From an uncultured Roseibium sp. (GTDB lineage: Bacteria > Pseudomonadota > Alphaproteobacteria > Rhizobiales > Stappiaceae), in NCBI RefSeq assembly GCF_947496995.1, contig NZ_CANMFD010000001.1:242692-306691 (forward strand): DNA of 64,000 nucleotides, written 5' to 3'. Below, one piece after another: positions 8,716-44,914 of the stretch. The translations under genes were made by a program, and so were the position numbers. Below the pieces are notes generated by a model. That model ran no database searches and was not told the DNA's origin. It saw only the letters and a program-made list of their open reading frames with translations. Positions within the stretch are counted from its first letter, which is position 1. Every line of letters begins with the position of its first letter.

Positions 8716-9764
8716 CTGTCGGCCTCGAAAGTGGCGATCTGGTCGCGGGTAACCTGAAGTGGGTCGGCGCCTTCCGCAACCTGGCGGTACCAGGTGACCG
8801 TTTTTTCGATCGCGTTCGCGAACCGCCAGGCAGGCGCCCAGCCGAGGTCGCAGCGTGCCTTGTCGATCGACAGCGAAAGACGGCCGGCTTCGTGGACGGC
8901 ATGCGCGTCGGACGCGTCGGTCCATTTGCCGGGCCAGTGTTGCAGGATGGTATCGGCCAGGTCCCGAACGGAAAACACATCGGCCGGCTCGGGGCCGAAA
9001 TTATATCCGCACTGGAACCGCGCATCTGCCGCCAAATGCACGCGTTCGGCCAGAGTGAGATAACCCTCGAGCGGATCGAGCACATGCTGCCAGGGACGGA
9101 TCGAGGCGGGATTGCGGATTTCTGCCGGATTTCCGGCTTGCAGGGAGCGGATGATATCGGGAACCAGACGATCCTCCGCCCAATCCCCACCACCGATGAC
9201 ATTGCCCGCCCGGGCCGTTGCTATCTTCAAACCGCCGCCGCCGAAGGACCGGCGCCAGCTGGCGGACACGAGTTCGGTGGCTGCCTTGGAGGCCGAATAC
9301 GGATCGTATCCGCCGAGCGGATCGTTCTCGCGGTAGGCATACGCCCATTCGTGGTTTTCATAGACCTTGTCGGTGGTCACGACGATGACCGTCACCGGTC
9401 GATCCAGCCTGTGCAGCGCGTCCAGAAGATGAACGGTGCCCATCACATTGGTCGCCCAGTTTCCGACCGGATCCTTGTAGGAACGGCGGACCAGGGACTG
9501 GGCCGCAAGATGAAGAACGATTTCCGGCCGGGTCGCGGCAACTTCCTTCTGCAGCGCATCCGCATCGCGGATGTCGAGAAGGGCGTTTCTCATCCGGGTG
9601 TCCAGTTTCAGGCCGGCATATAGGCTGCTGTCTCCCTCGGCGGGAAGCGCGATGCCGGAAACCTCGGCACCCCGTCCGATCAGCAGTTCGCTCAACCAGG
9701 CTCCCTTGAAACCCGTATGCCCGGTCAGGAGAACCTTTCTGTCTTGCCAGAAGCTCATCGCCAT
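8712..9764 (-). CDS. rfbG: CDP-glucose 4,6-dehydratase
   Basis: 350 aa. LLTGHTGFKGAWLSELL with YSASK catalytic motif. Directly downstream of the cytidylyltransferase. Confidence 0.88.
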   Translation of the reverse strand: MAMSFWQDRKVLLTGHTGFKGAWLSELLIGRGAEVSGIALPAEGDSSLYAGLKLDTRMRNALLDIRDADALQKEVAATRPEIVLHLAAQSLVRRSYKDPVGNWATNVMGTVHLLDALHRLDRPVTVIVVTTDKVYENHEWAYAYRENDPLGGYDPYSASKAATELVSASWRRSFGGGGLKIATARAGNVIGGGDWAEDRLVPDIIRSLQAGNPAEIRNPASIRPWQHVLDPLEGYLTLAERVHLAADARFQCGYNFGPEPADVFSVRDLADTILQHWPGKWTDASDAHAVHEAGRLSLSIDKARCDLGWAPAWRFANAIEKTVTWYRQVAEGADPLQVTRDQIATFEADR

Positions 9765-29809: not shown

Positions 29810-31033
29810 ATGAGTGACGACATGATCCGCATCTACGAGATGAACAATGGAGAAAAGGCTTTCTCACCGTTCTCGCCCTCGGAGATGGACCGCCGGCAGA
29901 CAGGGCTCAGAACGCTCATGGCGAAGCGGGAAATCGACGCCTGCCTGTTCACCTCCTATCACAACATCTGTTACTACTCCGGCTTCCTCTATTGCTACTT
30001 CGGCCGCAAATACGGCTTCCTCGTTACCCCGGAAAACGCGACCTCCATTGCCGCCGGCATCGACGGCGGCCAGCCCTGGCGCCGGACGCATGGCGACACG
30101 GTCATCTATACGGACTGGCGGCGAGACAATTATTTCCATGCCATCCAGTCACTGCTGGCGATGCCGAACCCGTCAGTCAAACGGATCGGTATCGAGTTCG
30201 ATCACGTCTCTCTCGATCTCCTGAAGCAGCTTGAAGCGGCGCTGCCGGGTGTCGAGCTCGTGGATATCGCCGCGGACGCCATGGCGCAGCGCACGATCAA
30301 GAGCGCGGAGGAGCATGTGCTGATCCGCGAAGGCGCACGCATATGCGATGTTGGAGGAGCCGCCCTTGTGGAGGCCGTCGCGGCCGGCGTTCCTGAACAC
30401 GAAGTGGCGATGGCCTCAACCAACGCCATGATCCGCGAGATCGCCGGATCGTTCCCTTTCGTGGAATTGATGGACACCTGGACCTGGTTCCAGTCGGGCA
30501 TCAACACGGACGGTGCGCACAACCCGGTCACCAACAAGAAGGTCGAGTCCGGCGACATTCTCAGCCTCAACTGCTTTCCGATGATCTTCGGCTATTACAC
30601 GGCTCTGGAGCGCACCCTCTTTTGCGATCACGTCCCGGACGCGCATCTGCGGCTGTGGGAAGTCAATTGCCATGTGCATCGCGAGGGCCTGAAGCTGATC
30701 CGGCCGGGCGCCCGGTGCCGCGATATTGCGGCAGAACTCAACGACATCTACCGCAGCCATGATCTTCTGAAATACCGCAGCTTCGGCTACGGACATTCCT
30801 TCGGCGTTCTCAGCCACTACTACGGCCGCGAGGCCTCGGTGGAACTGCGCGAGGATGTCGATACGGTGCTTGAACCGGGTATGGTGGTCTCCATGGAACC
30901 GATGATCATGGTCCCGGAAGGCCAGGCAGGCGCAGGTGGCTACCGCGAGCACGACATCCTGATCGTGACGGAAACCAGCGCTGAAAACATAACCGGTTTT
31001 CCGTTCGGTCCGGAGCACAACATCGTCGGCTAG
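29810..31033 (+). CDS. creatinase (creatine amidinohydrolase), M24 family
   Basis: Near-collinear with Pseudomonas putida creatinase as I recall it. Shared strings: FTSYHNI.YYS.FLYC.FGR, DGGQPWRR, YTDW.RDNYF, MDTWTWFQSGINTDGAHNPVT, SLNCFPMI.GYYTALERTLF, FGYGHSFG.LSHYYGREA and EPGMVVSMEPMIM.PEG..GAGGYREHDILIV. Confidence 0.88.
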   Translation: MSDDMIRIYEMNNGEKAFSPFSPSEMDRRQTGLRTLMAKREIDACLFTSYHNICYYSGFLYCYFGRKYGFLVTPENATSIAAGIDGGQPWRRTHGDTVIYTDWRRDNYFHAIQSLLAMPNPSVKRIGIEFDHVSLDLLKQLEAALPGVELVDIAADAMAQRTIKSAEEHVLIREGARICDVGGAALVEAVAAGVPEHEVAMASTNAMIREIAGSFPFVELMDTWTWFQSGINTDGAHNPVTNKKVESGDILSLNCFPMIFGYYTALERTLFCDHVPDAHLRLWEVNCHVHREGLKLIRPGARCRDIAAELNDIYRSHDLLKYRSFGYGHSFGVLSHYYGREASVELREDVDTVLEPGMVVSMEPMIMVPEGQAGAGGYREHDILIVTETSAENITGFPFGPEHNIVG

Positions 31034-31462: not shown

Positions 31463-32011
31463 ATGGACTACGCCAACGGGGGAATAGAAATGCCTGAACC
31501 TTCTGAAGTCTCGTTGCCGGGCTCGGATTTGCCGCAGATGCTTCAGATGGATTTGGATATCGGGGATTTTTGCTCGAACTGGGCGCATTGCGATCTTCTT
31601 TCCGCATATCTCGCCCGGATGGTCAGTCACAACCGCCTCGATTCACTCCTGTTTTCAAATCTTTATTCCTCCGCGCTGAACGAATTGCTGGAAACCGTTT
31701 TCAGGGTTCACGGCAAGTCGGGCAAGCTGGAATGCTCGGTCCGGCGGCAGGGTGGTCTGGACCGGATCGAACTGGTTTTTCCGGCGGACGAAGACACGTT
31801 CCGGGTTTACAGCGAAGCGATCGACAAGCTGTCCGGCAAGGATGCGGAAAAGCTGTATCTGGAAGCGTTGTTTACCGAGGACGAACCGGACGCAAGTCTG
31901 GGACTTCTGGAACTCGGTGTCGATTACGGCGCCAGGCTTGCCATCGACCGGGCCGGCGACGGCCGGATGTGTCTGGTCGCCGAACTCACGCTTGAGGACG
32001 AAAACGAATGA
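31463..32011 (+). CDS. degenerate GHKL (SiaB/RsbW-like, 'slr1658-type') paralogue, probable pseudokinase
   Basis: Alignable by eye with 35571-36116 but lacks the N-box Asn and the Gly-rich lid. An alternative start at ATG 31490 has a better SD (GGGGGA). Stop overlaps the next gene (ATGA). Confidence 0.6.
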   Translation: MDYANGGIEMPEPSEVSLPGSDLPQMLQMDLDIGDFCSNWAHCDLLSAYLARMVSHNRLDSLLFSNLYSSALNELLETVFRVHGKSGKLECSVRRQGGLDRIELVFPADEDTFRVYSEAIDKLSGKDAEKLYLEALFTEDEPDASLGLLELGVDYGARLAIDRAGDGRMCLVAELTLEDENE

Positions 32012-33186
32012 TTGCGGAAAATTCCACCCAGGCGTTTCAGTGGACCTATAACGAAAACGATCAGGAGTTCGCCCTGCACGGCAGCCTCCGCCCGCAGAAG
32101 GCGGAAGAGCTGAGCAACTGCATTTCGGCGCTCGATCAGTCTGTTTCCAACGTCAGCGGCAAATTCTACGTGAATGTCCGCCGCCTGGTGCGCATGAACA
32201 ATGTCGCCTTCCATGCCATCGCCTGCAAGATCCTGGATCTGGTGCGCGGTCGCAGCGACCTCGACGTCCATGTGACCACGTCGAGCGTTGTTGGCTGGGC
32301 AACGCGAAAGTTCGCGGTCCTGGAAACCATGTCCGACAAGATCACGGTGAGCGAATACGACAGCGAGTTCTACCCGGGTCAGTCCTTTGTCGAGGATAGT
32401 GAATTCATCCACGTCCTGCGCACCCAGACGAAATTGACGTGGAAGCATGAAAAGGACCTGCTGCGACAGCACGGCCTGAAGCCCGGCATGCAGGTTGCCG
32501 ACATCTGCTGCGGGATCGGTGATTTCGCGGTCCTTTTGCAGAAGGAATTCAGCCCGGACCGGCTGGTCGCGCTGGATCATTCCAAATCGAGCCTCGATTA
32601 TGCGCGTCAGGTTGCCGCGGACTTCGGCATCAAGGGGATCGACTATGTTTTCGGCGATGCGGCCGACATGCTGCTGGAGGACAATCAGTTCGATTTCGTC
32701 ACCTGCAGGCATTCCCTCCAGGTTTTCGACCGACCCGAACTGATCCTCAAGGAACTCTTCCGGATCTGCAAACCGGGCGGCCGGATCTACGTCACCAACG
32801 AGAAGAACTCCCATTGCCTGGGCGAGCCGCGCGGCGAGTCGATCCAGTGGACCTACAACGAGGTCGCCAAGCTCTGGCATCATTTCGACATGGACATCGA
32901 GATCGGCCCGAAAAGCCGGCGCTTGCTGATCGAAGGCGGCTTCGAGGATGTGACCATCGGCTCCTTCATGGTCACCAGCACCGATGGTGACCCGCAGGGC
33001 TTCGCCGATATCATTGCCTCGTGGAAGAACCTCTTCGCCGGCAAGATGGCAAGCGAGCGCGGTGACGATGCGGCTTTTGTCGAGCGTTTCGCCAAGGGAT
33101 TTGACGACCACATCTTTGCGGCGCTTCACCCCAAGGGATATGCCGGATGGCCGATCTGGGTGGCCTCGGGGCGCAAGCCGCTATGA
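32008..33186 (+). CDS. fusion protein: N-terminal STAS/SiaC-like ('slr1659-type') domain + class I SAM-dependent methyltransferase
   Basis: Residues ~1-115 are paralogous to the 112 aa protein at 36148-36486. MTase motifs present: VADICCGIGDF, ALDHS, FDFVTCRHSL, KPGGRIYV. Confidence 0.7.
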   Translation: MIAENSTQAFQWTYNENDQEFALHGSLRPQKAEELSNCISALDQSVSNVSGKFYVNVRRLVRMNNVAFHAIACKILDLVRGRSDLDVHVTTSSVVGWATRKFAVLETMSDKITVSEYDSEFYPGQSFVEDSEFIHVLRTQTKLTWKHEKDLLRQHGLKPGMQVADICCGIGDFAVLLQKEFSPDRLVALDHSKSSLDYARQVAADFGIKGIDYVFGDAADMLLEDNQFDFVTCRHSLQVFDRPELILKELFRICKPGGRIYVTNEKNSHCLGEPRGESIQWTYNEVAKLWHHFDMDIEIGPKSRRLLIEGGFEDVTIGSFMVTSTDGDPQGFADIIASWKNLFAGKMASERGDDAAFVERFAKGFDDHIFAALHPKGYAGWPIWVASGRKPL

Positions 33187-35567
33187 CGACACCGGCTACC
33201 ACTTCGCCGAGCGAAAAGCAGATCGGCCGCTTTTCGCTGCGCAGCTTCCGCGCCAAGTTCATGCTGGTCGTGGGCGCCGCGGTTCTGTTCGACCTCGCGC
33301 TTGCAGGCGGCATCGGCATCTGGAACGTCCAGCGGCTGTCTAAGGACGCCACCCAGCAGGTCGGTGACGGTCTCACCACGGCGACCGAGGAATATCTCCA
33401 GACCTATATCGACACGACGGCGTTCCGGGCCGATCTGCTGATCGAGCGGGTGCACTCGGAACTCGCGACGCTCGCCACCACCATGCAGACGCTGATCGAT
33501 CATCCTGAAATCCAGGAAGCGGTCGGCGATACCGTGACCGGCAGCCCGGATTTTTCCTCGCCTCTGGCTTATGACGCCAACGGTGGATGGGCCCAGAACG
33601 AGGCCGGCGTGCCCTCGGCCGTCAGCGTCTGGGGATACCTGCTCGACGAAAACAGGCAACCGGTGCCCAAAGCCGCCGAAGAGCTGAAAAAGAGTGCCTT
33701 CCTCAGCCTCGTCGGCCCTTCGATGATGTCGACGGGCGCGCCCAAGCTGCAAATCTATTATGTCGGCCCGAAAGACGCCTCGATCATGCGGGCGACCCCT
33801 TATTCCGAACAGGCGCAGACGTTCGATCTGCTCTATCCGGGACACAACGAAGGCCCGAACTTCTGGGACTTCTTTTTCCCCGGCGTCTATGAAGGCTGGC
33901 AGGCATGGATCGCGGACCCGTCCTCGAAGCCGGTGGACTCCAACATCGTCACCACGGCGCCCTATGTGGACGCGATCACCGGCGAACTGATCGTCAGCTT
34001 CTTTCATCCGCTATGGTCGAGCGACCGCAAGGACCTGGCCGGCATGGTGGCGGTCGACATCACCCTTGAACAGCTCACATCGCTGGTCGAGAGTCTTGAA
34101 ATTTCCGAGACCGGCTTCGGCTTCCTGGCCATGTCCGACGGCAATGTGGTGGCGACCAACTCCATAGGCGAGGAAACCCTGGGTCTCGTTTCCACCGATG
34201 TCAGCGGTCAGGGCGTCACCGGGGTCAACCGGAACCTGAAGGAAAGCAGCCAGGCCGCGATTGCCTCGCTTGAGCTCAATGCGACCCATGAAACGGTCAT
34301 CGAGCATATCTTCCTCGATCAGGGCGGCGAGGAAGTGCCCTATCTTCTCGTGCTCAAGCAGCTCAATCCCACCAACCTGTGGGACGGGGCGGGGATCACC
34401 GGTGAAACGATGACCCTCGGGTTCGTCGTCTCGGAGCGGGAAATCTACCAGTCCCTGATCGACGCGACCGACAATATCTCCGCCGCAACGACGCGCATCC
34501 TGAACTATCAGATCATCGCTTTCTTCTTCAGCATCGTGGTGGTCTTCCTGGCTGTCTACGCGATCTCCGGTCGTATCACCAAAGGCCTGTCGCGGCTGGC
34601 AGATGCTGCCAGGGCGTTGCAGAACAAGGACTATTCCGTCCGCGTCGAGATCCCCACCCGTGACGAAGTGGCGGCGGTGGGCCTGGCGTTCAATCGCATG
34701 GCGGAAGAGATCAGCTATCATACCGAGAACCTGGAAAACCTGGTCGAGGAACGCACCAAAAAGCTGGAGACCGCCAACAGCGAGATCGTCGCGCTGAATG
34801 CACGCCTGAAGTCCGAAAACAGCAGGCTGGGCGCCGAGCTCGACATCGCCAAGCGTATTCAGGAGATGGTGCTTCCGCGCCTCAGCGAGCTGGAAATCAT
34901 CCCGCAGATCGAGATCGCCGCCTTCATGGAGCCGGCGGACGAGGTCGGCGGAGACTATTACGACGTTCTGTTCGACGGCGAGCACATCAAGGTCGGTATC
35001 GGCGACGTGACCGGTCACGGGCTGGAAAGCGGCGTCCTGATGCTGATGGTCCAGTCTGTCGCCCTGGCGCTGCAGGAAAAGGGTGACAGGGATCCTGTCG
35101 CCTTTCTCGATGTCCTGAACCGGGCGGTCTTCAAGAACATCACCAGGACCCGCTCCGACAAGCACCTGACGCTGGCCTTTGTCGATTATCACGAAGGCAA
35201 GGTGACCTTGTCCGGCCAGCACGAAGAGGTTCTGATCATTCGCGCGAACGGCGAAACGGAACGCATCGACACCATCGATCTCGGCTTCCCGGTCGGTCTT
35301 GAAGAGGACATCTCACCCTTCGTCGCCACCCTGGACATGCCCTTCGGGCCGGAGGATGTTCTCATCCTGCACACGGACGGCATCACCGAAGCGGAAAACG
35401 ACAAGGGCGAGATGTTCGGCATCGATCGGCTCAGCGAGAGTGCACATGAAAACCGGCTGAAATCGGCGAAGGGTATTGCGGAAGCGGTCATACTTGATGT
35501 CAAGTCGCATATTGGCGGGCATAAGGTATTCGATGACATCACACTTGTCGTACTGAAGCATAGGTAG
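33183..35567 (+). CDS. membrane sensor PP2C/SpoIIE phosphatase (TM - Cache-like periplasmic domain - TM - HAMP - coiled coil - PP2C), SiaA/RsbU-like
   Basis: TM1 FMLVVGAAVLFDLALAGGIGIW and TM2 IIAFFFSIVVVFLAVYAI. HAMP region (GLSRLADAARALQNKDYSVRVEI…EVAAVGLAFNRMAEE). PP2C motifs GGDYYD, IGDVTGHG and LHTDGITE. Start at ATG 33183 overlaps the upstream stop. Confidence 0.85.
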   Translation: MTTPATTSPSEKQIGRFSLRSFRAKFMLVVGAAVLFDLALAGGIGIWNVQRLSKDATQQVGDGLTTATEEYLQTYIDTTAFRADLLIERVHSELATLATTMQTLIDHPEIQEAVGDTVTGSPDFSSPLAYDANGGWAQNEAGVPSAVSVWGYLLDENRQPVPKAAEELKKSAFLSLVGPSMMSTGAPKLQIYYVGPKDASIMRATPYSEQAQTFDLLYPGHNEGPNFWDFFFPGVYEGWQAWIADPSSKPVDSNIVTTAPYVDAITGELIVSFFHPLWSSDRKDLAGMVAVDITLEQLTSLVESLEISETGFGFLAMSDGNVVATNSIGEETLGLVSTDVSGQGVTGVNRNLKESSQAAIASLELNATHETVIEHIFLDQGGEEVPYLLVLKQLNPTNLWDGAGITGETMTLGFVVSEREIYQSLIDATDNISAATTRILNYQIIAFFFSIVVVFLAVYAISGRITKGLSRLADAARALQNKDYSVRVEIPTRDEVAAVGLAFNRMAEEISYHTENLENLVEERTKKLETANSEIVALNARLKSENSRLGAELDIAKRIQEMVLPRLSELEIIPQIEIAAFMEPADEVGGDYYDVLFDGEHIKVGIGDVTGHGLESGVLMLMVQSVALALQEKGDRDPVAFLDVLNRAVFKNITRTRSDKHLTLAFVDYHEGKVTLSGQHEEVLIIRANGETERIDTIDLGFPVGLEEDISPFVATLDMPFGPEDVLILHTDGITEAENDKGEMFGIDRLSESAHENRLKSAKGIAEAVILDVKSHIGGHKVFDDITLVVLKHR

Positions 35568-35570
35568 GGT

Positions 35571-36116
35571 ATGGTCGAGGATTACGGAAATACGGCTGCA
35601 GTCAACGGCGCCGATGCCAGGCGCTTTGCCCTCAAGCTGATGGCGGAGCCACTGGAGTTGAGCTGGCATCATTGCGGTGTCACCTCCGATTTCTTCGGCG
35701 AGTATTTCAGCCGCGCCTGCGACGGCAGCGTGGATGCTGTGGACGCCCGCCACAGCATCAGCTACATGATCAACGAGATCCTGGAAAACGCCATCAAGTT
35801 CCGCAAAGGCGGCAATATCGACATCACCGGCAGCCTGGAGGACGGGACGTTCGAACTCCTGATCAGGAACCGGATCGATGCGGGCACGGCGGAAAGCTTC
35901 AAGGCACACCTTGCGCAACTGCTCGAGCGTGAGCCGGGCGAGCTGTTGCTGGAGCGCATCGAGGAAAATGCTCTCAATCCGGACTCGACCGGTTCGGGAC
36001 TTGGAATCCTCACGCTCATGAGCGATTACGAAGCCAAATTGGGCTGGTCTTTCGCCTCCGAGCATGTAAGTGAAGGCGTAGAGTTGACGACCTATGCGTC
36101 TTTGCGACTTTCCTGA
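35571..36116 (+). CDS. GHKL-type serine/threonine kinase / anti-sigma-factor-like protein (SiaB/RsbW-like, 'slr1658-type')
   Basis: 181 aa. N-box NEILENAIKF and G-box DSTGSGLGILTL. Starts 3 nt after the phosphatase stop. Confidence 0.7.
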   Translation: MVEDYGNTAAVNGADARRFALKLMAEPLELSWHHCGVTSDFFGEYFSRACDGSVDAVDARHSISYMINEILENAIKFRKGGNIDITGSLEDGTFELLIRNRIDAGTAESFKAHLAQLLEREPGELLLERIEENALNPDSTGSGLGILTLMSDYEAKLGWSFASEHVSEGVELTTYASLRLS

Positions 36117-36147: not shown

Positions 36148-36486
36148 ATGGAAATCAGCACGAACGATTACCGCGTTTGGACTGAAGGTTCGACCATCCA
36201 CTATGAAGGTACGATGCGGCTCTCCGGCACGGATGCCTACGCGCCGATCCTGGAAGCCATGAATTCCATTCTGGCCGCCAAGCCGGAACTCATCACGCTT
36301 GACCTGACTAGCCTGCAGTTTCTCAACAGCTCGGGCATCAACCTGCTTGCCAAATTCACCATCGAAATCAGGAAGCAGCCGGAAGTCGGCGTCCGGGTTC
36401 TCGGGTCGAAGTCGATCCCCTGGCAATCGAAATCCCTCCGTAACCTGCAGCGTCTGCACCCCGCCCTGGAACTGACGATTTCCTGA
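36148..36486 (+). CDS. small STAS/SiaC-like partner-switching protein ('slr1659-type')
   Basis: 112 aa. LITLDLTSLQFLNSSGINLL resembles the phospho-acceptor loop of anti-anti-sigma factors and SiaC. SD AAGGAAG lies upstream. Confidence 0.65.
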   Translation: MEISTNDYRVWTEGSTIHYEGTMRLSGTDAYAPILEAMNSILAAKPELITLDLTSLQFLNSSGINLLAKFTIEIRKQPEVGVRVLGSKSIPWQSKSLRNLQRLHPALELTIS

Positions 36487-36684
36487 CCGCAATGCGGTCA
36501 GCCGCCTGAAGGTATCCGGGTGAATTTCCGCCTGGAAAGCCCGCTGCGGTTCGATGTTTTCCGGTGTGCAGCCATGCTGCAGGCGCGGCGCGCCCCGCCG
36601 CTCCGCTGATCTCCGCGCATTTTCCCTAAAGTTGGAACGGATCTTCACTTCAGGCGTTTGCCCCGCAACAGCGGGGTATATCGC

Positions 36685-37644
36685 ATGGAATTTTCTGAAG
36701 AGAACAGGCAGGAGCTGCCGGAGCCGTCTGGCGCCCGGTCCACACGTCGCGTCGGCGTCGAAATCGAATTCGGCGGACTGACCGCGATTGAAGCAGCCGA
36801 AGTCGTCGTTGCGCAGCTTGGGGGCGATATCGAGAAGATCGACAGGCACCGCTACCGTCTCGTTGGTACGGCGCTGGGAGACTTCAAGGTCGAGCTCGAC
36901 AGCAAATACGTGCACAGCGAGGACGACGCCTCGGACCTGGAACGCAAGGTCCGCAGCTTTGCCGGTGATCTGACAGGACCGATCGTTCCGACCGAGTTGG
37001 TCACCGATCCTTTGCCGGTTTCCCGGATCGGGGAAATCGACGCGCTGCTTGACCGCCTCGTCGCAGCCGGGGCGCTCGGCACGCAGCAGCTTCATCTGGC
37101 CTGCGGGCTGCATCTCAATGTCGAGTGGAACGACCGGGATATCCTGCCCATCTTGCGTATCCTGCAGGCCTACCTGATCAGTTCGCCTGACCTCCGCCGT
37201 GAGATTGCGCCCGATCCGATGAGGACACTGCTGCCGTTTATCGGTCACTTTCCGGAGGACTATCAGGACAAGGTTCTGGCCCCGGACTACCAACCGGATT
37301 TCAAGCGCTTTGTCGTCGATTACTGCCGCGCCAACCCGTCGAAGAACCGCGAGCTGGACCTGTTGCCGCTGCTCGCTTCGATTGATGAGGACACCGTCGC
37401 GGAAGCGCTCGGTCACCCGCCGGAGGCCGTGCGCCCCGCGTTCCACTACCGTCTGCCCAACGCCTCCCTTGGCGAGAGCAACTGGTCGATCGAAAAGGAA
37501 TGGGATCGCTGGTTGTCCGTGGAGGCGCTGGCAGTGGATGAGGACAGGCTCAAGGCCGCTCTGTCCGCACGAAAAATGCCCGACACCAAACAGGAAGAGA
37601 CGGGGACCTTTACCCGGATACTCAAGCGGGTGATCGGCAAATGA
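36685..37644 (+). CDS. Amidoligase_2-family (glutamine-synthetase-fold) COOH-NH2 ligase, substrate unknown
   Basis: The N-terminal RRVGVEIEFGG strand motif and size (~320 aa) fit the putative amidoligase family. Start chosen at MEFSEENR (ATG 36685). Confidence 0.55.
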   Translation: MEFSEENRQELPEPSGARSTRRVGVEIEFGGLTAIEAAEVVVAQLGGDIEKIDRHRYRLVGTALGDFKVELDSKYVHSEDDASDLERKVRSFAGDLTGPIVPTELVTDPLPVSRIGEIDALLDRLVAAGALGTQQLHLACGLHLNVEWNDRDILPILRILQAYLISSPDLRREIAPDPMRTLLPFIGHFPEDYQDKVLAPDYQPDFKRFVVDYCRANPSKNRELDLLPLLASIDEDTVAEALGHPPEAVRPAFHYRLPNASLGESNWSIEKEWDRWLSVEALAVDEDRLKAALSARKMPDTKQEETGTFTRILKRVIGK

Positions 37645-38354
37645 AACCGCTGATCGGAGTTTCCACATCCGCGCGCGGCGGCTGGCGGTCCTTTCTGGCG
37701 ATCCGCTTTGCGCTCTGGCGCGCCGGGGCGACCGCAAGGCGCATCACCGCCGGAAAACCATATGATCTGAACGAGCTTGACGGCATCATCGCCGGCGGCG
37801 GCGATGATATTTCCGCGACGCTCTACGGTGGCAGCCTGATACCGGACGTCCGGCTCGATCCGGAACGCGATGCGCTCGAAACTAAGCTCATCCGGTCGGC
37901 GGTCAGCCGCGGGTTGCCCGTTCTGGGCATCTGCCGCGGCGCGCAGATGATCAATGTGTCGCTTGGCGGAAATCTCCATGCCGACGTTTGGGAAGCGTTC
38001 AAGAGCGCGCCCGAAATACGCACTGTGCTGCCGCGCAAGCGGATCACAGTGTCGAAAGACTCATGGCTCGACACGATTCTGGAGTGTGACGGCTGCCGTG
38101 TGAATGCCTTGCACCACCAGTCGGTGGACTCTCTCGGAGAGGGGTTGAGAGTGAGCGCCACAGATGACTACGGCATCATTCAGGCCATCGAGTCGGTCTC
38201 CCGCCCGCAGATACTTGGCGTCCAGTGGCACCCCGAACTGATGCCCTTCACGCGCAATCAACTCGGGCTGTTCACCTGGCTCGCCGACACCGCCAGAAAC
38301 CGCGAAACGAAAACAGAGCATTTCATGCCCGGATTTGAGCGCCAGGCCGGGTGA
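37641..38354 (+). CDS. peptidase C26 / class I glutamine-amidotransferase-like gamma-glutamyl hydrolase (PuuD-like)
   Basis: PVLGICRGAQMINV (nucleophile Cys), NALHHQS and VQWHPE (His/Glu of the triad). ATGA overlap with the amidoligase gene. Confidence 0.8.
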   Translation: MKPLIGVSTSARGGWRSFLAIRFALWRAGATARRITAGKPYDLNELDGIIAGGGDDISATLYGGSLIPDVRLDPERDALETKLIRSAVSRGLPVLGICRGAQMINVSLGGNLHADVWEAFKSAPEIRTVLPRKRITVSKDSWLDTILECDGCRVNALHHQSVDSLGEGLRVSATDDYGIIQAIESVSRPQILGVQWHPELMPFTRNQLGLFTWLADTARNRETKTEHFMPGFERQAG

Positions 38355-41861: not shown

Positions 41862-42874
41862 TGGAAAGGCGCACAGTCTTCCTGCTTGCGGTTCTTCCCC
41901 TGTTGCTGGTCGCGCTCGCCCTGCATTTGCTGGTGGGCTACCGGCCAGCGGATATTCCGGGCCTCATCGGCGCGGTGCTTCGCTTCGAAGCCCAAAGCTA
42001 CGACGAGGCCGTGCTCCTGTTCCAGCGTCTGCCGCGCAGCCTGATCGCGATCTATGTCGGCAGCATCGCCGCTGCCAGCGGCTTCGTGCTGCAGAGCCTT
42101 GTGCGCAATCCTCTGGCGTCTCCGGCAACAATGGGTGTCAATGCGGGTGCCGCCCTGTTTCTCGTGGCCGGCGCGCTTGTGCTTGATATCGGACCGGCGC
42201 TGCAGGGTGTGGCCGCCCTTGCCGGGGCTCTGGCCGGCTTCGTTTGCTGCATTGCCATTGCCCGCTTTGCCGGCCGCCGCAACGATCCGCGCGGATTGTC
42301 GCTTATCCTTTCCGGAGCGCTGGTCTCCATGCTGTTTACCGGCATAACCAACGCCTTTTTGCTGTCCGACCCCGCACGGCGTTCGGAGTTTCTGAGCTGG
42401 GTGGTCGGCACAATCAATCATGCCTATATCGACAGGCTCGCCATGTTCTGGTGGGTCGGGGCGGGCGCCATCGTCGCCTTCCTCCTGCTCGCGCGGCCCC
42501 TCACGCTGATCCTGTTTGGCGCGGAAAAGGCGGCCTCGACCGGTGTCAATGTGCCCCTCGTCTCCCGCATCGCGATCCTGGCTGCCGTGCTTGGCTCCGG
42601 TTCCGTCGTCGCCGTATGCGGCCCGATCGGCTTCGTGGGACTGATCGTGCCGCATATGGTGCGCCCCTTTGTGGGCAACAATCTGGTCTTCGCGCTGCCT
42701 GCCTCGCTTGCGACGGGCGCCGTGGTCTGCCTGCTGGCGGATGTCTTCGCGCGCGAGGCTCTTTACCCCTATGTGCTGAGCACGGGCCTGGTGACGGATC
42801 TGATCGGCGGCGTCGTCTTTGTCATCATCGTCAAGCGTTTCTATCTCTCTCCTGCCAATCGGGAAGCGGCATGA
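41861..42874 (+). CDS. FecCD-family iron-siderophore ABC permease
   Basis: LPRSLIAIYVGSIAAASGFVLQSLVRNPLASPATMGVNAGAAL is typical of FecCD. Start overlaps the ATPase stop by 1 nt. Confidence 0.85.
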   Translation: MERRTVFLLAVLPLLLVALALHLLVGYRPADIPGLIGAVLRFEAQSYDEAVLLFQRLPRSLIAIYVGSIAAASGFVLQSLVRNPLASPATMGVNAGAALFLVAGALVLDIGPALQGVAALAGALAGFVCCIAIARFAGRRNDPRGLSLILSGALVSMLFTGITNAFLLSDPARRSEFLSWVVGTINHAYIDRLAMFWWVGAGAIVAFLLLARPLTLILFGAEKAASTGVNVPLVSRIAILAAVLGSGSVVAVCGPIGFVGLIVPHMVRPFVGNNLVFALPASLATGAVVCLLADVFAREALYPYVLSTGLVTDLIGGVVFVIIVKRFYLSPANREAA

Positions 42875-43938
42875 TCAGGCGCGGCACCGCGACGGACGGC
42901 AAACGGGTCCTGCGACTGGCGAACGGTCTTCAGATGCGGACCGGAAATCTCCTGGCAGGCTGCGGGCTTGCCGCAGCGGCGCTGATCCTGGCCGCCTGGT
43001 CCACAGGGCTCGGCCTGACGGATGCCGGACTTGCCGATCTGCTACGGGCGCTCACGGGCGGCTCTCTGTCCGATGCCGAAACATATGCGCTCCTGACGGT
43101 CCGGCTGCCGCGGATCCTGCTGGGCTTCATGGTCGGCTGGGCGGTGGCGCTCTCCGGTGCGCTGCTCCAGTCGATTGCGCGCAATCCACTCGCCGATCCT
43201 GGCCTTTTCGGTTTTAGCCAGGGCTCGATGATCATGATCATGCTGCTTCTGGTGATTGCACCGGTCGCGCCGAAAAGCCTGGTTGCGCTGGCAGCCGTGA
43301 CAGGCGGGCTGTGCGTTGCCGGCCTGCTGCTCTGGCTGGTCGGCGGCGAGCGGTCAAGCGGCCTTTCGATCGTGCTGTTGGGGATCGCCGTCGAGACGGT
43401 TCTGTCCTCGTTCGGCTCGCTGCTGATCCTCTACCTGCCGACGGAAACCTCGATTGCCCTGTCCGAATGGCTTGCGGGGTCTCTGTTCCAGGCCAACTGG
43501 AGCGTGATCGCGGCCTTTACGCCGCTGTTCGTGCTTGGCCTTGTCGGCAGTCTTCTCGCCGGGGGCGCGACTTCCGCCTACGACCTTGGCACGGAGATGG
43601 CGCAGGCGCTTGGCGAACCTGTCGCCAGATCGCGGCCGTTGATCCTTCTGTTCGCGGTCGTCCTGAGTGCTGCCGCGGTGACGGCTGTCGGACCTCTGGT
43701 CTTTCTGGGAGTGCTCGCGCCGCATATTGCCGGCTTTCTCTCGCCGGCCGTCGGCCGGGCCCGCTTGTTACTCTCCGGGTTGGTGGGGGGCATGCTTGTC
43801 GTTGCCGCCGACGCACTCACCCGCGGCATTGCCGGTGGCCTCCCCCTGCCGCTCGGTCTCAGTCTGACGATGGTCGGTGTTCCGCTTTTCATCATCGCGC
43901 TGCGTCTTCAGGCGTTGCGAAAACTCCAGTCTCATTGA
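42871..43938 (+). CDS. FecCD-family iron-siderophore ABC permease (second subunit)
   Basis: RLPRILLGFMVGWAVALSGALLQSIARNPLADPGLFGFSQGS. ATGA overlap with the first permease gene. Confidence 0.85.
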   Translation: MIRRGTATDGKRVLRLANGLQMRTGNLLAGCGLAAAALILAAWSTGLGLTDAGLADLLRALTGGSLSDAETYALLTVRLPRILLGFMVGWAVALSGALLQSIARNPLADPGLFGFSQGSMIMIMLLLVIAPVAPKSLVALAAVTGGLCVAGLLLWLVGGERSSGLSIVLLGIAVETVLSSFGSLLILYLPTETSIALSEWLAGSLFQANWSVIAAFTPLFVLGLVGSLLAGGATSAYDLGTEMAQALGEPVARSRPLILLFAVVLSAAAVTAVGPLVFLGVLAPHIAGFLSPAVGRARLLLSGLVGGMLVVAADALTRGIAGGLPLPLGLSLTMVGVPLFIIALRLQALRKLQSH

Positions 43939-43948
43939 AAGGTTTCTC

Positions 43949-44914
43949 ATGCGGTTTCTCGTTTCCTGCGCAGTCGCGGCCGTTCTGACGGCAAGCCCCG
44001 TTTTTGCGGCCGACCGTCTTCTCACCGACGATACCGGCCGGGAGATAACTATCCCGGACACTCCGGAACGGATCGTTGTCATGCACGAACCCCTGCTCGG
44101 CGTTCCGCTGATGGACCTTGGTCTGGAGCTTGCCGGCAGCTACGGCCGCGCGGACGACGGCGGCTTCGTGATCGCGGTGGATTTCATCGACACCGTGCTC
44201 GGCGAGGGCAAGGCCAAACCGAAGGGGTTCGGGCCGGTCGGCCAGCCGGACCTGGAAAAGTTGCGGGCGCTGGAGCCCGACCTGATCCTGGCGAGCGAAC
44301 TCGATGCAGGAAAGGTCGATCAGCTCTCGACCGTCGCTCCCGTTTATCTGCAGAATATCAGCGGCGACAAGGTGCACGGCTTTGACATTCAGGAGAACCT
44401 TGCGGCGCTGCTCGGCCGGGAGGATCTGTTTGAAGCTCGCAAGGCTGGCTATATGGAGCGTGTCGCCGAGTTGCGCGCCGCCCTGCCGGGAGATGCGGCC
44501 GGCCAGACCTATCTGCCGGTCTTCCTGACGGATCAGATCAACGTTGTCGGCGATTCTTCCGGCATGGTGCAGGCGCTGGAGGATCTTGGTTACACTCGGC
44601 TCGAGGTCGCCGAGGCGAGCACCACCTCGGCGAGCGGTGGCTCCATGATGCTGATGCCGCTCAGCGCCGAGGTGTTCGGCAGCTTGAACCCGGATATCCT
44701 TGTCCTGTTGAACAGCTATATGGACAGCAGCCGCGACGAGGCGGGCACGCGTGAAAAGCTCGACAGGATCGTCCCCGGCTGGGACCGTTTTATGAAACCC
44801 GCCCTGGAAAATCGCATTCTCTTTGTCGATCCCGCAACGGTCATCACGCCGACGGTGGCGAGTGCGGAACACATGCTGGACGCCATCGAGCACTGGAGCG
44901 GGCAGGCACAGTAG
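43949..44914 (+). CDS. periplasmic iron-siderophore binding protein (FecB/FhuD-like, cluster A SBP)
   Basis: Signal peptide MRFLVSCAVAAVLTASPVFA. Followed by TDDTGREITIPDTPERIVV, typical of this family. Confidence 0.8.
   Translation: MRFLVSCAVAAVLTASPVFAADRLLTDDTGREITIPDTPERIVVMHEPLLGVPLMDLGLELAGSYGRADDGGFVIAVDFIDTVLGEGKAKPKGFGPVGQPDLEKLRALEPDLILASELDAGKVDQLSTVAPVYLQNISGDKVHGFDIQENLAALLGREDLFEARKAGYMERVAELRAALPGDAAGQTYLPVFLTDQINVVGDSSGMVQALEDLGYTRLEVAEASTTSASGGSMMLMPLSAEVFGSLNPDILVLLNSYMDSSRDEAGTREKLDRIVPGWDRFMKPALENRILFVDPATVITPTVASAEHMLDAIEHWSGQAQ

Follow-up and report, generated by a model that had tools for sequence, protein, structure and literature searches.

How does an operon come to carry two paralogous pairs of a kinase-like and an antagonist-like protein, one of them apparently competent for catalysis and the other degenerate, and what might the degenerate pair then be doing? 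This question is posed by five tightly packed plus-strand genes, here called A to E in their order along the DNA, which open-reading-frame listing and family scans delineated in a window of 64,000 nucleotides from an uncultured Roseibium sp. (contig NZ_CANMFD010000001.1, positions 242,692 to 306,691; coordinates below refer to this window unless another locus is named). Partner switches are a main route of Ser/Thr signaling in bacteria, and most of what is known about them concerns the control of sigma factors. The original prediction for this locus, made by eye, held that the kinase-like protein A and the STAS-like N-terminus of B, the latter fused to a methyltransferase, are dead counterparts of an intact pair, D and E. 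Our family-level comparisons bear this out: A and the N-terminus of B are degenerate copies of D and E, with three nucleotide-binding elements of the GHKL fold and the canonical phospho-serine lost family-wide. Judged by alignments and modeled folds, A is a pseudo-enzyme version of D. We propose, with a probability of roughly 0.45 for the reading as a whole, that the operon encodes a split-function partner switch, in which the jobs of an anti-sigma-kinase would be divided between the paralogs A and D.

The paralogy of A and D is recovered by BLASTP (E-value 3e-6, 22% identity over 135 residues), which places WAHCDLLSAYLARMVSH opposite WHHCGVTSDFFGEYFSR, LNELLETVFRV opposite INEILENAIKF and DASLGLLEL opposite GSGLGILTL; a comparison of the two family profiles with hhalign (96.2% probability, E-value 2.5e-9, 144 columns) returns the same register. 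For the family-level view, 120 homologs of A and 103 of D were collected and aligned, and motif counts are given over 121 A and 104 D sequences. In this alignment, the position of the Mg-binding N-box Asn is occupied by Thr in 106 of the 121 A proteins, by Ala in 15 and by Asn in none, as against Asn in 103 of the 104 D proteins; the Asn-to-Thr change first noticed in a single protein is thus a trait of the family. The NELLE portion of the box is as invariant in the A family as the corresponding motifs are in the D family, with its Glu (E74) and the NE..E pattern invariant throughout, and the D homologs keep both the N-box NE[LI]LENA[IV]KF and the lid GSGLG[LI]LTLM in 103 to 104 of 104 cases. 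At the end of the second beta-strand, the site of the G1 Asp in GHKL proteins and of a polar contact with adenine, 102 of the 104 D proteins have Asn; in A proteins this G1-equivalent residue is Leu, Phe or Ile, always with Pro after it. The glycine-rich ATP-lid has been lost in A, as had been claimed, inasmuch as GSGLG is absent and D-[PA]-x-[LIV]-G stands in its place; however, the claim needs a correction, for the last of the lid glycines is retained and near-invariant (G147).

These losses extend beyond the close relatives of A. An exhaustive search with the A profile against 1.84 billion representatives at 50% identity recovered 230 proteins at an E-value of 0.001 or less, and an alignment of 116 full-length proteins from the 150 best-scoring of these shows Leu, Thr, Val, Ile, Ala or Ser at the Asn position while NE..E is conserved. 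In that search only the weakest matches carry true N-boxes (ENA), together with a G1-equivalent Asn and GLG in the lid. The D profile finds weak matches alone in the PDB, but these lay its N-box onto the N-boxes of histidine kinases and therefore confirm the identity of the relevant Asn; PDB sequence searches with the single D sequence and with the A profile returned no match. Against the NCBIfam model slr1658_superfam (NF047703, curated cut-off 100 bits), D scores 167.5 bits and A 72.0 bits, the one above and the other below the cut-off. The Pfam scan gave no match for A, and for D a HATPase_c score of 19 bits, under the cut-off of 26.4, with Asn100 instead of Asp at the G1 position. From the motifs, A probably cannot bind ATP, and D is likely to be an active kinase for protein E.

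The predicted folds agree with this kinship. The AlphaFold2 (AF2) model of A (predicted local distance difference test score, pLDDT, 86.9; predicted template-modeling score, pTM, 0.83) retrieves by Foldseek against the PDB SpoIIAB (1l0o, E-value 8e-5; 1til; 1tid), SiaB (6kko), RsbW, UsfX and the catalytic and ATP-binding domains of histidine kinases; SiaB, which appears among the matches of A only, is the best by TM-score (0.61-0.64). The top matches of the D model (pLDDT 90.5) are SpoIIAB, UsfX and RsbW, and the catalytic domains of histidine kinases are found as well. In their models, then, A and D are both anti-sigma-kinase-like GHKL proteins, and A displays the Bergerat alpha/beta sandwich. 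A side feature of the two proteins is a W-x-H-C motif at the start of helix 1, common to A (Cys43, 31586-31591) and D (Cys35, 35673-35675); its Cys never varies in A and occurs in 76 of 104 D proteins, and a second Cys is near-invariant in A (C91, 31733-31735). Redox sensitivity of these cysteines is conceivable.

The likeness between the N-terminus of B and protein E lies deeper. BLASTP gave no significant alignment of the two in the right register, and profile methods were needed because it is blind to this relationship; further, a homolog search with the N-terminal 135 residues of B returned only eight proteins, for which reason the B orthologs were taken from genome loci. A comparison set of 78 B N-termini and 71 E proteins drawn from such loci aligns by hhalign with 88.7% probability (E-value 2.6e-6, 94 columns) and superposes RLVRMNNVAFHAIA on SLQFLNSSGINLLA. 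With this, all four of the hand-made alignments have been reproduced by formal methods, those of A and D by BLASTP and hhalign and that of the STAS-like domains by hhalign. Against the NCBIfam model slr1659_superfam (NF047705, cut-off 100 bits), protein E scores 143.4 bits, above the cut-off, and residues 6-113 of B score 29.5 bits (E-value 7e-7), below it; the STAS and ant_ant_sig matches of protein E are weak.

Opposite the canonical STAS phosphorylation motif, (D/N)-S-S-G, B carries N64-N65-[VIL]-A67-F68 in 78 of 78 proteins, with Asn65 at the position of the phospho-serine. Protein E has FLNSSGINLLAKF, including FLNSSGIN, invariant in 71 of 71 sequences, so that the replacement of Ser-Ser-Gly by Asn-Val-Ala, initially seen in one pair of sequences, separates the two families completely. 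In SiaC the phosphosite, T68 in LLYLN-T-SSIK, has been mapped by experiment (PMC7647112), and in the alignment it coincides with Ser61 of protein E and Asn65 of B (PMC7647112). By these comparisons the N-terminus of B and protein E are STAS-like paralogs, and the handle of B is without the canonical phospho-serine.

The remainder of B and the product of C supply the putative output and input. The methyltransferase domain of B scores above the Pfam cut-offs (Methyltransf_11, 68 bits; Methyltransf_25, 67; Ubie_methyltran, 67; E-value about 1e-18), matches Methyltransf_31 as well, and retains the S-adenosylmethionine (SAM) motif I, DICCGIGD, as is proper to a class I SAM-dependent methyltransferase; its closest solved structure is 3mgg (E-value 3e-17), and the nearest structures are generic. 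C combines dCache_1 (1.7e-9), HAMP (1e-12) and a SpoIIE-type PP2C domain (PF07228, 1.2e-34, 120 bits) in which the metal-binding motifs of PP2C phosphatases, DVTGHG, TDG and DDIT, are intact. Its C-terminal half resembles SiaA, with 130 bits for the model NF038263, short of the cut-off of 700.

Selection acts on the dead and the live halves alike. In pairwise comparisons with ten Roseibium-group relatives, the ratio of nonsynonymous to synonymous substitution rates (dN/dS) is 0.09-0.25 for A, 0.05-0.15 for B, 0.07-0.26 for C, 0.11-0.20 for D and 0.03-0.08 for E. All five genes are under purifying selection, and A is a working protein, as constrained as D; because its ratio is similar to that of D, A is to be regarded as functional and not as decaying. 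The lowest values are those of E, as a hub in contact with C, D and one further partner would be expected to show. In a mirror-tree comparison, the distances of five parts (A, B N-terminus, PP2C domain, D and E) correlate with one another at r of 0.77-0.83, as against 0.41-0.55 with the methyltransferase domain; this stronger co-variation within the switch parts suggests that A belongs to the switch and not to the enzyme core. In partial correlations, A gave 0.61 with both the B N-terminus and E, and D gave 0.65 with the B N-terminus and 0.58 with E.

The arrangement is as conserved as its parts. A scan of one genome per GTDB species yielded 135 relatives of A, from which 80 loci were kept, and in all 75 of these that extend far enough the genes A-B-C-D-E occur in the same order and orientation. 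Their hosts are mostly Hyphomicrobiales (Roseibium, Rhizobium, Shinella, Mesorhizobium, Devosia, Aestuariivirga, Aminobacter, Labrys), with Parvibaculum and Elstera in addition, and the best-matching locus is that of Labrenzia sp. OB1 (96-99% protein identity). Distant metagenomic relatives, whose A proteins share 23-37% identity with ours, also have the full cassette (L082, L083, L088); an apparent loss of D in L088 was rejected, as D is there split by an assembly frameshift. A permuted locus, L085, has the order C-D-E-A-B, with the A-B and D-E adjacencies kept. Without exception, the distant cassettes have NSSG in E and ENA with SGLG in D; at the critical positions A has Thr, Leu, Val or Ser and B has Asn, His, Ala or Gly. 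Since such distant relatives keep both the cassette and the split, the alignments indicate that the duplication is ancient and the division into a dead and a live pair is a defining feature of the system. On the point of age and inheritance raised with the original prediction, the loci thus speak for a duplication that is ancient and strictly co-inherited across the 75 loci and the distant cassettes.

One variant departs from this scheme. In two loci (L086, 9001-11432; L087, 5824-8255) a dead-type A is followed by D and E and then by a class III adenylate/guanylate (nucleotidyl) cyclase, and both B and C are absent. An N-terminal STAS-like domain was sought in the cyclase beside A-D-E, and none was found, a coiled coil being present instead. 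A must therefore have a partner other than the B handle in this variant, which fits A binding either E or the output enzyme. Other metagenomic loci have cyclase genes next to a full cassette (L083, 6546-7799; L088, 14476-15478), and their presence in the variant and beside cassettes suggests that the output enzymes are interchangeable.

Briefly, we advance the following mechanism. C, D and E make up, robustly as far as domain assignments go, the parts list of a partner switch of the SiaABC or RsbU/W/V type. C would sense a periplasmic ligand through its dCache and HAMP domains and dephosphorylate phosphorylated E, whereas D would phosphorylate E on Ser61 and thereby do no more than reset the system. 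A, which has the same fold as D but presumably lacks Mg-ATP binding, might act as a binding protein only, that is, as an anti-factor. B would carry at its N-terminus a non-phosphorylatable copy of E as a handle, a decoy STAS domain, and A, by clamping this handle, could control the methyltransferase domain. Upon activation of C, dephosphorylated E might build up, compete with the handle for A and displace it, with a resulting change in methyltransferase activity. A is cast as the kinase-dead anti-factor because A-B and D-E are always adjacent and because A occurs without B in the A-D-E-cyclase variant. The earlier suggestions that the dead copy works purely by binding and that the live pair competes with it are reasonable readings, given that the losses are family-wide, that the proteins are under purifying selection and that the duplication is ancient and co-inherited. 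Which protein binds which, and in which direction the methyltransferase is affected, we put forward tentatively. More tentative still is a broader proposal, that this might be the first partner switch with a SAM-dependent methyltransferase as its output, gated by a decoy STAS domain held by a kinase-dead GHKL anti-factor, with a separate live kinase and phosphatase tuning the competing free STAS protein; the ancient division of labor between paralogs, met also with nucleotidyl-cyclase outputs, would then define a modular family of pseudo-enzyme switches.

Several points tell against this proposal and have to be set beside it. The D family has Asn and not the canonical Asp at G1, and the activity of the supposedly live kinase is thus itself a deduction; indeed, binding, ATP use and kinase action are for every member read from sequences and models. 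The mirror-tree and partial correlations do not discriminate who binds whom. Finally, an invariant T91-S92-S93 in B is a conceivable alternative phosphosite, although these residues are probably structural, because their region aligns with a conserved G-S motif of E.

The same observations can be arranged differently. A and B might form a constitutive heterodimer, with A as a structural or allosteric subunit of the methyltransferase that is never displaced, while C, D and E act separately and dephosphorylated E binds the methyltransferase domain or another target directly, in the manner of SiaC and SiaD. Such an arrangement would accord with the translational coupling and constant adjacency of A and B, and with SiaABCD, where the unphosphorylated STAS-like protein directly activates the output enzyme and the kinase is only a kinase (PMC7278518). 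It sits poorly, however, with the cyclase variant, in which A exists without B and so is not merely a methyltransferase subunit, and with the closer co-variation of A with the other switch parts than with the methyltransferase domain; we hold it to be unlikely. Alternatively, the live kinase D could be what docks on the handle of B, in a dead-end complex with a pseudo-substrate that holds the methyltransferase until dephosphorylated E releases it, leaving A as a decoy that buffers free E or B. A non-phosphorylatable STAS domain and a kinase would be apt to form a long-lived complex by the classical logic of SpoIIAB with ADP and SpoIIAA, and of the partial correlations that between D and the B N-terminus is marginally the highest; yet that difference is within noise, and no arrangement seen, not even the permuted one, parts A from B or D from E, so that this docking appears improbable.

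Could A instead be alive, through non-canonical nucleotide binding or phosphotransfer, and phosphorylate B at some other Ser or Thr such as T91-S92-S93? Some kinase-dead anti-sigma factors, for instance UsfX, are said to bind nucleotides even so. The invariance of E74 and NE..E in A and of TSS in B would be in keeping with this idea. However, three independent nucleotide-binding elements have gone (the N-box Asn, the G1-equivalent Asn and the glycine-rich lid), the Asn position varies freely among hydrophobic residues across the clade and hence shows no selection for metal binding, and the TSS of B looks structural from its alignment with the G-S motif of E; we regard a living A as very improbable. 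As for the suspicion that A and the B N-terminus are functionless, decaying relics of a duplication, to which their scores under the curated family cut-offs might lend color, it is refuted by the conservation data: 27 columns are invariant over 45 A sequences at about 50% identity, the dN/dS of A is as low as given above, and the pair is present in every cassette examined, at identities from 23% to 97%. The split-function switch accordingly remains the reading we prefer when turning to known systems.

The nearest of these is SiaABC(D) of Pseudomonas aeruginosa, whose operon likewise brings together a HAMP-PP2C phosphatase of the membrane with a GHKL-like kinase and a STAS-like phosphoprotein, both small, and whose threonine-phosphorylation switch controls an enzyme and not a sigma factor (PMC7278518). 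For the phosphosite, N-T68-S of SiaC and N-S61-S of E fall at one position (PMC7647112), and both the best TM-score match of the A model and the family model matched by the C-terminal half of C belong to this system. The differences are that the output of our cassette is a SAM methyltransferase, with the GGDEF/diguanylate cyclase gene absent; that D reaches only 16.5 bits with the SiaB family model, whose cut-off is 85; and that SiaABCD is without a second, degenerate kinase/STAS pair. The Pfam and NCBIfam scans gave no SiaC/DUF1987 match for E.

For the dead/live split, an experimental precedent lies in the SigF network of Mycobacterium smegmatis. There RsbW1 and RsbW3 are without kinase activity and act by binding, RsbW1 as an anti-sigma factor, while RsbW2, in which the N, G1 and G2 motifs are preserved, is the sole kinase of RsfB, with RsfA as a second antagonist (PMC7693655). 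Binding and kinase roles are hence divided between paralogs in that network as we propose here, and the architecture is not as unusual as had been claimed (PMC7693655); the novelty lies in a fixed operon of five genes and in a dead STAS domain that is fused to a methyltransferase. In the mycobacterial case the switch acts on a sigma factor, its genes are dispersed, a STAS domain fused to an enzyme is lacking, and the similarity to the cassette is at the level of the fold only. RsfA is reportedly not regulated by phosphorylation, and is said to be redox-regulated.

With the classical SpoIIAB-SpoIIAA and RsbW-RsbV pairs the cassette shares the fold of A and D, the (D/N)-S-S-G motif of E and the logic of a PP2C counter-enzyme; it differs in having no sigma factor in or next to it, in the Asn that replaces the G1 Asp in D and in the absence of all ATP motifs from A. 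By their scores, D and E are bona fide members of the slr1658 superfamily (that of Synechocystis slr1658) and the slr1659 superfamily, whereas A and the B N-terminus fall below the cut-offs as distant paralogs. A slr1658 mutant is impaired in recovery from iron limitation and Pgr5 overexpression (PMC7555055); the literature search on these superfamilies gave this mutant phenotype only and no biochemistry. Our literature searches found no description of the five-gene cassette, which works like SiaABC(D) and the mycobacterial SigF network and is a member of neither. It is also not a known defense system, a possibility rejected on the ground that PADLOC gave only a generic methyltransferase-domain match (mad2).

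In broader terms, we have here a conserved operon, mostly of Hyphomicrobiales, that couples a partner switch to a methyltransferase and points to a regulated methylation reaction. It amounts to a natural experiment, in which one paralogous pair appears to have kept catalysis and the other to have lost it with both under selection, and offers a clean system for the study of how pseudokinases and pseudo-substrates work in bacterial signaling. The analysis also corrects a widespread misannotation: A (31490-32011) and its homologs (P0001, P0002, P0006, P0015 and others) are named "ubiquinone biosynthesis methyltransferase UbiE" in NCBI and UniRef, which is wrong for a GHKL-fold protein with no methyltransferase domain. 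The name probably spread from the neighboring methyltransferase fusion gene.

The features discussed above are collected in Table 1. For A, the start at ATG 31463 used in the original prediction should give way to ATG 31490, which is the likelier since the resulting 173 residues are the commonest length among the closest homologs. The stop of A and the start of B overlap as ATGA, and the gaps are 3 nucleotides between C and D and 31 between D and E. As annotated, C shares its first 40 nucleotides with the end of B (33147-33186); an alternative at ATG 33183 is possible and would create an ATGA overlap with the stop of B, as at the A/B junction. A promoter and terminator scan of the operon showed nothing above chance.

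Table 1. Positions of the five genes, their key motifs and domains, and examples of a second phosphatase gene in other loci (positions in the named locus).
Feature	Position	Strand	Description
Gene A	31463..32011	+	182 residues from ATG 31463 or 173 from ATG 31490; predicted kinase-dead GHKL-fold, anti-sigma-kinase-like protein
N-box of A, degenerate	31679..31702	+	NELLETVF; Thr78 codon (31694-31696) replaces the Mg-binding Asn
Phe106 of A	31778..31780	+	Opposite the G1-equivalent Asn100 of D in the hhalign register
ATP-lid of A, degenerate	31877..31915	+	EDEPDASLGLLEL; aligns with STGSGLGILTLM of D
Gene B	32008..33186	+	392 residues; N-terminal pseudo-STAS, conserved linker, class I SAM methyltransferase, C-terminal extension
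Pseudo-STAS of B	32008-32352	+	About residues 1-115; slr1659-like
Methyltransferase of B		+	About residues 137-270
NNVA of B	32197..32208	+	In the place of the canonical STAS phosphorylation motif; paired with NSSG of E by hhalign
Gene C	33147..35567	+	806 residues; predicted membrane sensor phosphatase, dCache, HAMP and PP2C (SpoIIE)
Gene D	35571..36116	+	181 residues; slr1658-superfamily GHKL protein, presumed Ser kinase
N-box of D	35772-35801	+	NEILENAIKF
Asn100 of D	35868-35870	+	G1-equivalent
ATP-lid of D	35985-36020	+	STGSGLGILTLM
Gene E	36148..36486	+	112 residues; slr1659-superfamily single-domain STAS-like protein, presumed phospho-substrate
NSSG of E	36325-36336	+	N60-S61-S62-G63; Ser61 is the predicted phosphosite
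Second PP2C, L042	8714-9649	-	Soluble, coiled coil and SpoIIE
Second PP2C, L055	6482-7474	-	Soluble, coiled coil and SpoIIE
Second PP2C, L002	about 8877-9668	-	Soluble, coiled coil and SpoIIE

Some of the surroundings vary between loci. In 48 of 62 full-length loci, the gene directly upstream of A, in divergent orientation, encodes a second, soluble PP2C of about 310-335 residues, with a coiled coil and a SpoIIE domain, which may be a second input to the switch; it is absent from the window, where a creatinase/M24 peptidase gene (29810-31033) stands in its place. In Aminobacter sp. UC22_36 (L072) one copy of the cassette lies on a plasmid of 697 kb, and the cassette can therefore ride mobile replicons. 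Directly downstream of E in the window, an Amidoligase_2 gene and a gene for a peptidase C26/gamma-glutamyl hydrolase-like protein overlap each other by 4 nucleotides (36658-38354); we rejected them as members of the system, for the pair occurs only here and in Roseibium marinum (L002) and thus lies outside the conserved cassette. Farther along, positions 42001-44000 show a strong negative AT skew (-0.37) over genes for FecCD-type ATP-binding cassette permeases, an ordinary finding for such hydrophobic membrane proteins.

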